A stretch of DNA of 64,000 nt. Origin: an uncultured Verrucomicrobiae bacterium. GTDB lineage: Bacteria > Verrucomicrobiota > Verrucomicrobiia > Chthoniobacterales > JAFAMB01. Positions 54,661-58,085 of this stretch are shown piece after piece. Position numbers and translations under genes: made by a program. A model generated the notes under the pieces. It was given only the letters and a program-made list of their open reading frames with translations. It ran no database searches and had not been told where the DNA came from. Location of the stretch: the NCBI GenBank assembly GCA_963762565.1, contig CAVXLD010000001.1, positions 416,001 through 480,000 of the forward strand, given 5' to 3'. Each line of letters starts with the position of its first letter. The stretch's first letter is position 1.

Positions 54661-55637
54661 CGCCGGATACCATTCTCCTGGTCAAGCCAAGCTCTCTCGG
54701 GGATATCGTCCACACATTACCCGCGCTGAGATTCGTCAAACAGTCGTTCCCGAGAAGTAAAATCTATTGGGTCGCGAACACAGAGTGGAGCCCGCTGCTT
54801 GAAGATAACCCGGACTTGGAAGGCGTTATCCGGTTTCCCCGAAGGAGTTTTCGCGGTCTTAGAGGGGTGATCCGGTTCTGGCAGTGGTGCCAAGAGTTGG
54901 GCAAGCTGCGGGCTGATCTGGTACTCGATTTTCAAGGCCTCTTTCGGAGCGCCTTGATCTCGCGGAGCGCGGGTAGCCGACTGGTATTGGGTTTGGCTGA
55001 CGCGCGGGAGGGAGCTAGATTTTTTTATCAAAAGGCCGCTCCCGTAACGCCGACCCAGCATGCGGTCTTGCGTTATCTGGCTCTGGCCGCGCTCGCCGGC
55101 GCGGATGTCTCCGGTCAAATCGAGTTCACATTACCCCAGGGCCGTCCGATACCAAATTTTGAGCTACCAAATCAGTTTGTCGTCCTTCACCCTTTTTCAA
55201 GGGGAACCGGCAAATCGTTAGGTGAAGCCGAGATTTACCAGTTAACCGCAGCACTGGCTCCCATTCCTGTCATTATCGTTGGGAAGGCTGACTCTCCGAT
55301 CTCCTTTGCTCGGAACGCAGCCTCACTAGTTAACCTAACCGATCTGGAACAGCTAATCTGGCTGCTGCGCAAGGCCGCCTTCGTAATCAGCGTCGATAGC
55401 GGACCAATGCACCTGGCAGCAGCCGTATCGCGCGAGATTCTATCAATCCATTTTTGGAGTGACCCCAGAAAAGTCGGACCATTCCGGCCGGACGCCTGGA
55501 TCTGGCAAGACAACAAGATATTACGTAAGGAAGAGCTGCCCGAAGAGTCACGAGAAGGAGACAGATCGGTGCGGCCGCGTCCGGAGCAGATCGCGTTGTT
55601 CATCCGGGAACGACTTGGAATAGGAGCTAGGAGCTAG
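54657..55637 (+). CDS. Family 9 glycosyltransferase (LPS heptosyltransferase-like)
   Basis: KPSSLGDIVH, DFQGLFRS, SVDSGPMHLAAA. Confidence 0.92.
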   Translation: MTPDTILLVKPSSLGDIVHTLPALRFVKQSFPRSKIYWVANTEWSPLLEDNPDLEGVIRFPRRSFRGLRGVIRFWQWCQELGKLRADLVLDFQGLFRSALISRSAGSRLVLGLADAREGARFFYQKAAPVTPTQHAVLRYLALAALAGADVSGQIEFTLPQGRPIPNFELPNQFVVLHPFSRGTGKSLGEAEIYQLTAALAPIPVIIVGKADSPISFARNAASLVNLTDLEQLIWLLRKAAFVISVDSGPMHLAAAVSREILSIHFWSDPRKVGPFRPDAWIWQDNKILRKEELPEESREGDRSVRPRPEQIALFIRERLGIGARS

Positions 55638-55726
55638 AATTCAGGAGCCAGGAGGGGCGGTGGGCCCTATCTTGGTAGATGCCATGGTGTTGTCAGGCTG
55701 CCGGATCAACAGCAGCCTGACAAACA

Positions 55727-56833
55727 ATGATTGAATACAAACTCAAGGCGGCACCGACCGCCGTAAGCCAGGAAAAGAACAGCCAAAAGGAAGCGAAGGC
55801 AAACCGGATCGTGCTGGGAGTCGATGCGCACCTAAAGAGCTATCAGGCGGCCCGCAAGATCGATAACGGGGCTGTGGGAGTAGCCCAGACATTCGGGAGC
55901 AAGGAAGCGTTGTTGCTTTACGTTGAGAAGCAGCGAGAGCAAGCCAAGGAAGTGGTGGTGGTCTACGAAGCCGGGCCGCTGGGGTACTCGCTGTATCGGC
56001 AGTTAAAGGCAAGCGGGATTGAGTGCCTGGTCTGTGCACCCCGCAGCGGAGAGCAGAAGAGGAAGCGGGGCAAGAACAACTCAATTGATGCGCGAACCTT
56101 AACCAGTGATCTGAGCAATTATCTCAATGGCAATGAGCAAGCGCTGCAACTGGTCAGAATACCGAGGGAGGCTCAAGAGCAGGCTCGAGTGGAAAGTCGC
56201 CAGCACGATGCGCTGGTGCAAGAACGCCAGCGCATCGGCGTCATGGGCAACTCCCTTTTGCTGAGCCAGGGCTACCAGAGCTGGAGCAATTGGTGGCGGC
56301 CCAAAGCTTTTGAGCACTTAAGCAAGGGGGTGGCGCCTTGGATTGTAAAACATCTTGGTCGCTGGGTTGGGATATTACGCGAGCTAGACCAGCAAATTGA
56401 GCAAGCCAAGGCAGAGCTAACCAAGCAGTACCAAGGCCCACGGCCAAAGGGGATGGGAGCTCCCAGCTTGGCGCAATTGAATGCTGAAGTACTGGATTGG
56501 AATCTTTACTCAACTGAACGCAAGATCGGCTGCTTAGCCGGGATGGTGCCCAGTGAATGGAGCAGCGGAGAGAGCCAACGCTTGGGTGCAATCACCAAAG
56601 TGGGACTACCGGCTCTGCGGCGCATCATCACCGAGATGGTCTGGCGGATGATCCTCTTCCAGCCCGAGTATAAAGCGGTGCAAAAATGGCGTGAGCTACT
56701 GGAGGGCTCTAACCGAGGACTGAAGAAAAAAGCCGTGGTGGCCATCGGCCGGCAACTGATCGTCGATATCTGGCGGCTACAAACCGGTCGTATTACTGCC
56801 CAGCAATTGGGTCTCATCATGATCGAGGGCTAA
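55727..56833 (+). CDS. IS110-family transposase/recombinase
   Basis: RuvC-like GVDAH, YEAGP, KNNSIDAR; C-terminal AGMVPSEWSSG..GAITKVG. Confidence 0.93.
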   Translation: MIEYKLKAAPTAVSQEKNSQKEAKANRIVLGVDAHLKSYQAARKIDNGAVGVAQTFGSKEALLLYVEKQREQAKEVVVVYEAGPLGYSLYRQLKASGIECLVCAPRSGEQKRKRGKNNSIDARTLTSDLSNYLNGNEQALQLVRIPREAQEQARVESRQHDALVQERQRIGVMGNSLLLSQGYQSWSNWWRPKAFEHLSKGVAPWIVKHLGRWVGILRELDQQIEQAKAELTKQYQGPRPKGMGAPSLAQLNAEVLDWNLYSTERKIGCLAGMVPSEWSSGESQRLGAITKVGLPALRRIITEMVWRMILFQPEYKAVQKWRELLEGSNRGLKKKAVVAIGRQLIVDIWRLQTGRITAQQLGLIMIEG

Positions 56834-56989
56834 AACCATTTTAGAAGTGACCCGAAGACTCGGGTTTTAACTTGGGGCTCTGCCCCAAACCCCGGTTCGG
56901 GGGAAACAGGAGCAAGCTGGCGCCTCTAAAGAGGCCCCATGGTTAAGGGAGAAGCTGACACAGCACTAGACTAAACATTTTAACTCTGG

Positions 56990-57135
56990 ACTTTGGAACG
57001 GCGCGCGCTCGTGCTCGCCCCTGGGCTTTAAAAGCCCGTTGGTAGATTGGGCGCGCTCGTTCCTCTTGAGCGATGCGTATAGAGCATCTTGCGCTGTCAA
57101 ACCCTGACAGGCCGGATAGGAGGCTGCCTTGTCCC
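56990..57135 (+). ncRNA. Putative bridge/seek RNA core (target- and donor-binding loops)
   Basis: Loop 1: CTCGCCCC (57014-57021) + hairpin + TTGGTAG (57039-57045) match the REP target halves. Loop 2: GCATCT (57084-57089) + hairpin + ATAGGAG (57116-57122) match the predicted circle junction. RNA ends unknown. Confidence 0.7.
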
Positions 57136-57596
57136 AATCGAGCTCGGAGACATGAGCCACAAGAGGAAACGTACCAACCGTCGCAAACCGGCTCGATCTC
57201 TGAACTAAAAATTTTGGCAACTACGTTGCTCTACAAAAGATGACAAACCGCTAAAAACACGCAGGGTAGCTTGACAACACCATAGGGGGGCGAGGCTCCC
57301 GGAGAGCCCTGCGATTCTCCAGGGTGGGTGGCACAAACGCCAAAATACAAATGCGCAAGGCCAAGGAAACGCGCCGAGCCGTACCCACAGTAAACCACGG
57401 CTCGGCGCGCTTTGAAGTGTAGCAACATTCTCCGGAGGTTTAATATTGGACGCTGCGCGATAACTTTGAGTTCTTTCGGGAGCCTCGCCCCACCAAGATA
57501 GGGCCCACCGCCCCCTCCTGGCTCCTAGATTCTAGCTCCTAGCTCCTGTTCTACTTTCCGCTTTAAATAACCCCAGAAGCATCTATCTAACACCAT

Positions 57597-58085
57597 ATGC
57601 CTTCGTTCGACATCGTGTCGGAAGTCGACAAGCAAGAGATCGACAACGCCCTCAACCAAGCTAAGAAAGAGCTGAGTACCCGATTTGACTTCAAGGACAG
57701 CAAAGCCTCGATCGAGCGCACCAGCCCCGACGTGCTTGAACTAACAGCCGAAGATGCCGCCAGATTGCGGTCTTTGATGGAGATCATGGTTGGCAAGCTG
57801 GCTAAACGCGGCGTCGATTTGCGCAACGTCGAACGGAAAGATCCGGCAATTTCCCCCTTAGGGCACGCGCGCCAGGAAATTCATATAAAACAAGGGCTCG
57901 AGGGAGATAAGGCAAAAGAGATCACCAAAGCGATCAAAGCTGAAGGAATAAACGTGCAGTGCCAATTACAGGATCGCCAGATCCGAGTCTCCGGAAAAAA
58001 GAAGGATGATCTGCAGACAGTGATCCAGTTTTTGCGGAAAAAAGATTTCGGCGTAGCGCTGAATTTTAAGAACTTCCGAGATTAG
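57597..58085 (+). CDS. yajQ: YajQ-family nucleotide-binding protein
   Basis: MPSFDIVSEVD, RFDFK, RVSGKKKDDLQ, NFRD end. Confidence 0.95.
   Translation: MPSFDIVSEVDKQEIDNALNQAKKELSTRFDFKDSKASIERTSPDVLELTAEDAARLRSLMEIMVGKLAKRGVDLRNVERKDPAISPLGHARQEIHIKQGLEGDKAKEITKAIKAEGINVQCQLQDRQIRVSGKKKDDLQTVIQFLRKKDFGVALNFKNFRD

Follow-up and report, generated by a model that had tools for sequence, protein, structure and literature searches.

The window analysed here, a 64,000-nucleotide (nt) stretch of DNA from an uncultured Verrucomicrobiae bacterium, carries an insertion sequence (IS) of the IS1111 type whose non-coding region 3' of the transposase gene, tnp, very probably encodes a bridge RNA or seekRNA on the tnp strand, with guides for both target and donor. 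A sequence-only reading of the window had proposed a bridge-RNA-like guide in such an element, and the proposal is supported: across relatives the target guides change with the flanks and the donor guides change with the element ends, and the layout is that of an IS1111 seekRNA. The sequences themselves, a target-module fold with compensatory changes, a repeated target and the co-variation of target guides with flanks are all directly observed. The match of guide to flank across homologs is a stronger argument than either shuffled sequences or genome-wide counts.

Element boundaries were set by comparing occupied copies with 208 unoccupied TTGGTGGGGCGAG sites. At the left boundary ..CTTGGT is followed by AGATGCCATGGTGTTGTCAGG, and at the right boundary ..CTTGACAACACCATAGG is followed by GGGGCGAGGCTCCC; the empty site is TTGGT joined directly to GGGGCGAG, and the inserted DNA runs from AGATGCC to CCATAGG. 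The IS1111-type element of the sequence-only reading stands, with its end moved to 57286 (..CCATAGG). Its subterminal inverted repeats are 14 bp long with one mismatch, within the 7–17 bp and short terminal extensions of IS1111 elements, and its non-coding DNA is distributed as in that group, with 50 nt before the tnp start codon and a long 3' region of 453 nt after the stop. The element and its immediate surroundings comprise the following features.

55677..57286, + strand: IS1111-type insertion sequence, 1610 bp, first bases AGATGCC, last bases CCATAGG
55672..55676, + strand: left target flank TTGGT, kept in 3/3 genome copies with an intact left end and also present at the copy on contig C9
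57287..57294, + strand: right target flank GGGGCGAG, the first 8 bases outside the right end, belonging to the repeat GGGGCGAGGCTCCC
55684..55697, + strand: left subterminal inverted repeat ATGGTGTTGTCAGG, 7 nt in from the left end
57270..57283, + strand: right subterminal inverted repeat CTTGACAACACCAT, 3 nt in from the right end, with a perfect TTGACA inside
55727..56833, + strand: transposase gene tnp, 368 aa, IS110 family (by Pfam, NCBIfam and motif)
57485..57497, − strand: unoccupied 13-bp target, reading TTGGTGGGGCGAG on this strand, 199 bp past the right end of the element

The genome that holds the window (G000; 15 contigs, 6.1 Mb) contains four element copies at ~100% identity, all inserted at the identical point and in the identical orientation of the repeat. 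Three copies share the junctions TTGGT-AGATGCC... and ...CCATAGG-GGGGCGAGGCTCCC. The fourth (contig C9, ~31860, locus L004), otherwise ~100% identical, has unchanged flanks and an altered left end, where TTGGTAGA-GCTGTGTTGTCAGG replaces TTGGTAGATGCCATGGTGTTGTCAGG; the donor right arm and part of the inverted repeat are thereby altered, and this copy is therefore probably immobile. The exact 13-mer target TTGGTGGGGCGAG occurs 208 times in G000 and GGGGCGAGGCTCCC 150 times, the latter with TTGGT nearly always directly before it among the first 80 matches inspected. Insertion is thus specific for site and orientation and proceeds without conventional target duplication, as judged from 4/4 genome copies and from the boundaries of the metagenome clade. 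The four copies and 208 potential sites account for a class of repeat-associated insertions in this genome.

The repeat has features of its own. At least three variants of the family are present in G000, GGT-GG-GGCGAG (258 copies), GGT-AG-GGCGAG (246) and GGT-AG-GGCGAA (116), and the latter two are targets of other element-family clades in metagenomes. The 30-nt upstream flank of the unoccupied target at 57485-57497 nearly equals the left flank of the element (55640-55676), so the element occupies one arm of an inverted repeat pair; the pair resembles the doublets of repetitive extragenic palindromic (REP) sequences (BIME/REPIN). On contig C6 (~44513) the sequence ..TTGGTGGGGCAGT-CCATAGG-GGGGCGAGGCTCCC places the last 7 element nt before a target with the element absent, which may be a remnant or an excision scar.

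Predicted target guides and their flanks

The predicted guide RNA has two modules and spans ~180 nt of the 3' non-coding region, about 56993-57171 on the + strand. Its two loops follow one another, are each enclosed by a stem and are built alike: a hairpin in the middle, preceded 5' by an antisense guide and followed 3' by a sense guide. The target loop holds segments of 8 nt and 5(+2) nt that correspond to opposite target strands on either side of the insertion point; the donor loop holds segments of 6 nt and 7 nt that correspond to opposite strands of the joined element ends. Every sequence word named by the sequence-only reading lies where it was placed, whereas the RNA span given there was too short, since the second module extends past 57135. 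The parts are as follows.

56995..57063, + strand: target-binding module, 69 nt, an outer stem around an internal loop with an inner hairpin
56995-57006 and 57051-57063, + strand: outer stem of the target module, GGAACGGCGCGC with GCGCGCTCGTTCC, one T bulged
57014..57021, + strand: right-target guide CTCGCCCC, reverse complement of GGGGCGAG, pairing with top strand GG-GGCGAG (57287-57294)
57023-57037, + strand: inner hairpin of the target module, GGGCTTTAAAAGCCC
57039..57047, + strand: left-target guide TTGGTAGAT (TTGGT-AG + AT), identical to the left junction 55672-55680
57060..57168, + strand: donor-binding module, enclosed by the stem TTCCTCTTG (57060-57068) with CAAGAGGAA (57160-57168)
57084..57089, + strand: right-donor guide GCATCT, complement of AG-ATGC at the element left end (55677-55682)
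57094-57110, + strand: central hairpin of the donor module, CTGTCAAACCCTGACAG
57116..57122, + strand: left-donor guide ATAGGAG, the last 5 element nt plus the AG of its first 2 nt

Within 55600-57400, TTGGTAGAT is found twice, at the left junction and in the target loop, and its last two bases, AT, match the element left end. Because single words are short, the matches could be a product of chance and hindsight, words of 5–9 nt having been picked from a 450-nt GC-rich region once the flanks were known. We compared the region with 200000 dinucleotide-preserving shuffles of 56834-57277, a span 9 nt shorter than the full non-coding region. Both target words (CTCGCCCC and TTGGTAG) appeared together in 37 shuffles, both donor words (GCATCT and ATAGGAG) in 120, and at least three of the four guide words in 7. 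In a search of both strands genome-wide, CTCGCCCC-N10-40-TTGGTAG gave 4 matches, all within the four element copies, and no orphan RNA copy with this target-loop pattern was found outside elements. GCATCT-N10-40-ATAGGAG gave 10 matches, the four element copies and 6 unrelated contexts; the donor pair alone is therefore weak evidence. The shuffles bear out the earlier contention that the evidence lies in the joint arrangement of short matches, the donor pair by itself remaining weak. Together with the homologs described next, which carry guides matching other flanks, these counts leave coincidence with almost no credibility.

Relatives were collected in two scans. Scanning species genomes with the protein yielded 11 loci with 61–83% identity, 10 of them in metagenome-assembled genomes (MAGs) titled Verrucomicrobiae, Verrucomicrobiota or Chthoniobacterales and 1 in a MAG titled Solirubrobacterales, which accords with the Verrucomicrobia-like host suggested from sequence. 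A scan of metagenome contigs with a five-protein alignment gave 126 relatives, of which the best 80 (60–89% identity) were kept. Both anchors of the RNA scaffold were located in 71 loci, and the loop was parsed in 72; the right flank was available in 61 and the left flank in 61. Seven loci (L055, L059, L075, L096, L097, L101 and L105) were unparsed and uncounted. By eye, alignment of L055, L059, L097 and L101 gives GCTCGCCCT with flank AGGGCGAGG, a full match, and that of L075 gives GCTCGCCCT with AGGGCGAAT (7/8); L105 is without a right flank and L096 is cut by the contig end.

The 61 right-flank loci comprise 18 distinct guide/flank pairs in 12 classes of right-target guide. With one flank per class, 94/96 positions of guide and own flank were Watson-Crick complementary; when flanks were permuted among the 12 classes the mean was 63.3, and 94 was reached in 0/100000 permutations. 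Relative to CTCGCCCT, 22/24 guide substitutions were met by the complementary flank base. The refuting outcome named in the sequence-only reading, loops that stay constant despite different targets, is thus not what homologs display: loops change with targets on the right (94/96) and, as described below, on the left (58/61). Examples of guides with their flanks are as follows.

CTCGCCCC with GGGGCGAG: 18 loci
TTCGCCCT with AGGGCGAA: 11 loci
CCCACTCT with AGAGTGGG: 5 loci
GCGACCCT with AGGGTCGC: 4 loci
CGGACCCT with AGGGTCCG: 3 loci
CCCGTCCC with GGGACGGG: 2 loci
GGCGCCCT with AGGGCGCC: 2 loci
CTCTCCCT with AGGGAGAG: 1 locus

For the left-target guide, the last 3 nt before AG equalled the flank in 58/61 loci, with the triplets GGT (47), GGA (5), TGT (4), GCT (1) and TCC (1). 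Over 5 nt, the seven classes matched at 26/35 positions (permutation mean 14.3; 26 reached in 16/100000). Agreement is partial at positions −4 and −5, being 0.64 and 0.47, respectively, in the TTGGT class. The recognised target therefore amounts to about 3–5 nt, a 2-nt core and 6 nt.

Some relatives are of interest in themselves. L023 (63% protein identity), the locus in the Solirubrobacterales-titled MAG, is a full homolog near the end of a 473-kb contig with guide and flank of the type seen in Verrucomicrobiae copies; its placement could reflect horizontal transfer or a binning or assembly error. Two others are decayed: L025 has lost the guide-RNA region, with unrelated sequence from ~140 nt past the stop codon, and L021 has lost its left end and has point changes in the right-target guide.

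Fold, strand and the donor loop

A single-sequence fold of 56834-57280 was better than that of shuffled sequences (z = −3.49). The consensus obtained with RNAalifold from an alignment of 53 distinct homologous RNAs has a 16-pair outer stem and an internal loop in which two target words flank a small hairpin, followed by a donor module consisting of an outer stem, a hairpin GATGC..GCATC, the central hairpin and the left-donor word. In the target module, where 99.3% of cells are paired, compensatory changes occur in 4/16 outer-stem pairs, one pair being GC/AU in 20 sequences, and 6 pairs are changed on both sides (40 cells), all within the target module. In the consensus 99.4% of cells are paired, versus 36–57% when partners are slid by 1–3 columns, and column shuffles reached any of five measures in 0/500 trials. 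Structure is thus conserved in the target module; pairs of the donor module are invariant or vary on one side only, and covariation is accordingly neutral on donor structure. G-U is found at five stem pairs in 50 or more of the 53 sequences and at a sixth in 36. Because the opposite strand would have C-A at these places, the fold fits the + strand only.

These properties also bear on whether the region might act as DNA, either through internal protein sites (transposase titration, immunity) or through pairing by a single DNA strand. Sequence comparison cannot separate an RNA guide from a DNA strand of equal sequence, which leaves this explanation some room. However, the two site halves stand in opposite sense with a hairpin between them and so are not copies of the duplex site, and G-U pairs confined to one strand, along with compensatory changes, point to a folded single strand. 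Moreover, for four IS1111 members RNA of the corresponding region co-purified with the transposase and was required (PMC11187229). We consider action as DNA highly improbable.

Inside the close family the donor loop offers no test, because the ends AGATGCC.. and ..CCATAGG and the words ATAGGAG and GCATC(T/A) are all constant. Different ends are found only in distant relatives. A phylum-wide protein search returned 8/401 genomes at E <= 1e-40, G000 included, the other seven being distant (32–36% identity) and informative for the donor loop only. Distant relatives (31–36% protein identity) have the ends AGATGAC.. and ..CATAGC and the same two-module layout; for one of them boundaries were set by comparing 4 copies. 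In 11/11 elements whose right end is known, the non-coding region of the element itself holds the left-donor 7-mer that corresponds to that end, ATAGGAG or ATAGCAG. The right-target 8-mer cognate to the flank is likewise present there in 8/9 elements with a readable right flank, the remaining one, L027, having one G-U. At the place of GCATCT, inspection by eye gave GTCATC in L010, GGTCAT in L011 and L014, TCAACT in L006-L008, TCACCT in L009 and, in L012, whose left end is AGATGCC, GCAACT. The fourth base of the right donor arm (C or A) is faced by a fitting base in 13/13 elements examined visually; opposite the first base of this arm, or opposite the first core base, the guide often does not fit. 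The donor reading is supported by these sequences, less firmly than the target reading because few independent changes are available.

An explanation that retains only half of the proposed RNA would have the target module alone act as a guide, with 57060-57168 serving as a structural or regulatory scaffold and the ends recognised by protein through the subterminal repeats. Donor stems and guides that are invariant in the close family and a GCATC predicted to be base-paired are what it would lead one to expect; an ~82-nt RNA with target matches sufficed for ISEc11 movement (PMC11187229), and the long IS1111 subterminal repeats could serve protein recognition. What speaks for donor guides instead is that in distant relatives both donor words follow the altered ends, including the cognate 7-mer in every element with a known right end and the fitting fourth base noted above. 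In addition, ATAGGAG equals the circle junction (ATAGG+AG) and not the integrated right junction of the window clade (ATAGG+GG), which favours the donor reading. A pure scaffold is, in our judgement, very unlikely.

The pairing of GCATC involves a predicted hairpin at 57072-57088 with a 5' arm, GATGC, identical to the donor right arm. Distant L014 and L011 have an analogous ATGACC/GGTCAT, and L010 and L012 are without such a hairpin. The pairing may be incidental, or it may keep the guide hidden as long as the RNA is unbound.

Two further hairpins lie in the 3' non-coding region.

56874..56903, + strand: twin hairpin GGGGC..GCCCC-AAA-CCCCG..CGGGG, then AAC, between tnp and the guide RNA
57217-57229, − strand: terminator-like hairpin and T-run near the right end, on the strand opposite to the element genes

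The twin hairpin occurs within G000 only in the four element copies and is kept in relatives, lying 3' of the guide RNA in distant L006 and L009; a processing or binding site is a possible role. Three RNA-library contigs of one soil run match this stretch only. The hairpin at 57217-57229 is conserved in relatives as GGCAAC..GTTGC and might stop transcription entering the element from outside.

The core dinucleotide

By analogy with published relatives, the region would act as RNA, bind the transposase and direct recombination. In such a scheme a DEDD/serine transposase loaded with the RNA would bring the excised circle and a repeat copy, TTGGT joined to GGGGCGAGGCTCCC, together. The two target-loop guides would pair with strands of the insertion site on either side of the crossover, and GCAT-CT of the donor loop would pair with AG-ATGC of the left end in the circular form. 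Strands would then be exchanged at a 2-nt core, AG in the donor, after which the AT that follows TTGGT-AG would fit the incoming donor arm.

Most clades have a right junction ..CCATAGG-AG-GGCGAA.. and a left junction ..GGT-AG-ATGCC.., and because both carry AG, a single AG is common to target and donor. The window clade departs from this pattern. Its empty site has GG at the core, its right-target guide ends in CC, not CT, and its left-target guide keeps AG. All four window guides carry core-facing bases, yet the target core is GG versus a donor core of AG. Across 61 loci, guide ending and right-junction core combine as CT/AG (38), CC/GG (20), CC/AG (2) and CT/AA (1). The window clade comprises 26 loci, in which left boundaries read ..AGAT-GCCATGG in 19/19 readable cases and right boundaries CCATAGG-GGGGCGAG in 18/18, with all outer flanks distinct. 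The claim that both donor guides include an AG/CT core applies to this clade; most relatives read GCATCA, with an unpaired base opposite the first core position. Alternative registers with a shared core of GG, GT or TG were tried for the window clade, and none yields both junctions from the empty site. No element copy sits at an AG-core site in G000; CCATAGGAGGGCGA has 0 occurrences there despite 246 GGT-AG-GGCGAG sites, and all four copies occupy GG-core sites.

On the strand antisense to tnp, a target CTCGCC-CC-ACCAA and a donor GGCAT-CT-CCTATGG would give the observed junctions if both were cut 3' of the core and exchanged; such cutting and exchange is described for the IS621 top strand by Hiraizumi et al. 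(PMC11208158). The uniform outcome of AG on the left and GG on the right may be the direct product or may reflect repair or selection, sequence alone being compatible with either. It is conceivable, though we lean slightly the other way, that this clade moved naturally to a target whose first core base is unlike that of its donor, with adaptation of the right-target guide only, the mismatch being tolerated by the mechanism and not removed by later selection. If so, the clade would be a natural experiment in which an IS1111-type recombinase tolerates a core mismatch and each core base remains joined to the arm on a particular, constant side of the crossover; this would settle where, and with which polarity relative to the tnp strand, strands are first exchanged. 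The outcome would then be the one expected when the strand antisense to tnp, cut 3' of a CT/CC core, exchanges first, like the IS621 top strand. A GG target core facing an AG donor core bears on the strictness of core matching as well as on crossover position.

Transposase, transcription and known systems

The tnp product scores 46.4 bits against Pfam PF02371 (Transposase_20), above the cut-off of 21.3. It lies slightly below the cut-off for PF01548 (DEDD; 28.3 bits, cut-off 29) and for NCBIfam NF033542, 'IS110 family RNA-guided transposase' (134.7 bits, cut-off 140, E 4e-39). The translation holds G272-M-V-P275-S-E-W-S-S280-G281, position 280 being outside the invariant columns of the five-protein alignment. 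Scores and motif point to a DEDD/RuvC-like N-terminal domain and a C-terminal Transposase_20 domain with G--P----S/T-G. Because of the Pfam and NCBIfam matches and this motif in the open reading frame product, the element is assigned to the IS1111 type of the IS110 family, at some distance from the curated models. Scores this close beneath curated cut-offs mean that automatic pipelines may leave the gene unnamed. G000 holds further IS110-family transposase genes or fragments, unrelated to this one, at C3:84910-86073, C3:840837-842067, C12:255512-256731 and C7:319662-320033, and two of them exceed the NCBIfam cut-off.

Transcription starts, in the published view, from a promoter formed at the circle junction. 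A sigma-70-like promoter scan of the integrated element gave 0 sites, and the lack of an internal promoter agrees with transcription from the circle junction. A search of sequencing runs gave no more than small shares in soil RNA libraries. In 4 runs of 4 studies there are contigs of relatives over both tnp and the non-coding region; such contigs cannot show RNA ends, strand or level, and uncovered parts are uninformative. They are a weak hint of transcription.

A number of these observations weigh against a guide RNA in the region. DNA carry-over is possible for the soil contigs, the promoter scan was negative, and the candidate promoter at the circle junction combines a perfect −35 TTGACA and a 16-nt spacer with a poor −10 CATGGT (3/6). 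The transposase is slightly below two curated cut-offs (PF01548 and NF033542), and a PDB sequence search with a five-sequence transposase profile gave no match at E up to 0.01 and then up to 10, so there is no residue-level mapping onto IS621. An Rfam scan of 55500-57600 at E up to 10 gave no relevant match, though Rfam 15 may lack a bridge-RNA model; the best match, Ysr251 (E 0.12), was far under the gathering score and was dismissed as noise. Donor stems never co-vary, GCATC is predicted to be paired as the 3' arm of the hairpin 57072-57088, the donor loop draws its support from few independent changes, and most relatives, reading GCATCA, leave the first core base unpaired. Finally, some guides do not fully match their flanks, namely those of L021, L077, L103, L053 and L108; L053 matches at 6/8 Watson-Crick positions and L108 at 4/8, the last probably owing to a shifted boundary, as it has an extra A there.

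On a single conserved scaffold, the family in soil Verrucomicrobiota offers a series of naturally retargeted elements with at least 12 right-target guides, 5 left-guide triplets and known flanks. It is material for the pairing rules of IS1111-type guides: how long the arms are, how much wobble is tolerated and what the core contributes.

The closest published counterparts are the IS1111 seekRNA members ISEc11, ISPa11, ISKpn4 and ISPst6 of Siddiquee et al. 2024 (PMC11187229). That study describes a long non-coding region downstream of tnp, RNAs of ~80 and ~150 nt that co-purify with the transposase, and transposases carrying the G--P----S/T-G motif. Here, too, the predicted RNA is coded in the long 3' region of tnp and subterminal inverted repeats are present. 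The guide order is the same 5' to 3', top-strand complement first and bottom-strand complement second, the opposite of the IS110 type, and the matches abut or overlap at the insertion point (PMC11187229). Modules of 69 nt and ~180 nt are comparable to the 70–100 and 145–170 nt of IS1111 seekRNAs. As for ISPa11, the target is a repeated extragenic sequence. ISEc11 and ISXne4 are described as a natural retargeting pair in which guide bases are replaced and the stem is conserved (PMC11187229); such re-direction on a conserved stem is seen here 12 times over. Differences lie in the transposase (368 aa versus 330–350 aa), in its scores just short of the NCBIfam and Pfam DEDD cut-offs, and in the host, a soil member of the phylum Verrucomicrobiota. 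As far as the text of PMC11187229 goes, no donor loop is described, whereas a donor loop is readable here.

Comparison with IS621 brings out a second set of likenesses. Durrant et al. 2024 (PMC11208160) defined left and right target guides (LTG, RTG) and left and right donor guides (LDG, RDG), each including the core, and predicted bridge RNAs at the right end in 93.0% of ISfinder IS1111 elements; Supplementary Table 5 of that paper may already contain close relatives of this element. In both systems two internal loops occur with the target loop first and the donor loop second (PMC11208160, PMC11208158), and the AG common to target and donor in most clades resembles the IS621 core (PMC11208160). 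Viewed on the strand opposite to tnp, the element has a CT core and its guides are arranged as in IS621, with LTG 5' and RTG plus handshake 3' (PMC11208160, PMC11208158). The earlier statement that the target is read antisense to the transposase thus proved apt, the opposite-strand layout becoming that of IS621. In IS621 the RTG is followed 3' by handshake bases that pair with the donor once strands have been exchanged (Hiraizumi et al. 2024, PMC11208158). The AT (GT in some clades) after TTGGT-AG similarly fits the first two bases of the left arm of the element, and on the antisense reading its position and role are those of the handshake bases. Unlike IS621, in which the RNA lies upstream of tnp, the element has its predicted RNA downstream, with guide order reversed on the tnp strand; it also has long (14 bp) subterminal repeats, a short left-arm match (3–5 nt) with a right-arm match of 6 nt plus core, and a transposase without a sequence-level match to the solved IS621 protein.

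ISPpu9 with its small RNA Ssr9, from Pseudomonas putida (Pares-Guillen et al. 2025, PMC12288879), likewise has a small RNA gene downstream of tnp, a fixed insertion point in REP sequences, often in inverted REP pairs, and a conserved AG at both ends. It is described as belonging to the IS110 group, without subterminal repeats, and as having orphan RNA copies, unlike the present element, whose target-loop pattern is confined to its four copies.

Collectively, the element fits, as far as its sequence reveals, each published IS1111 seekRNA point that sequence can test. RNA-guided recombinases of the IS110/IS1111 type were already published in 2024, and the finding adds an example, not a principle; the element of the window is a well-supported new example of that type.

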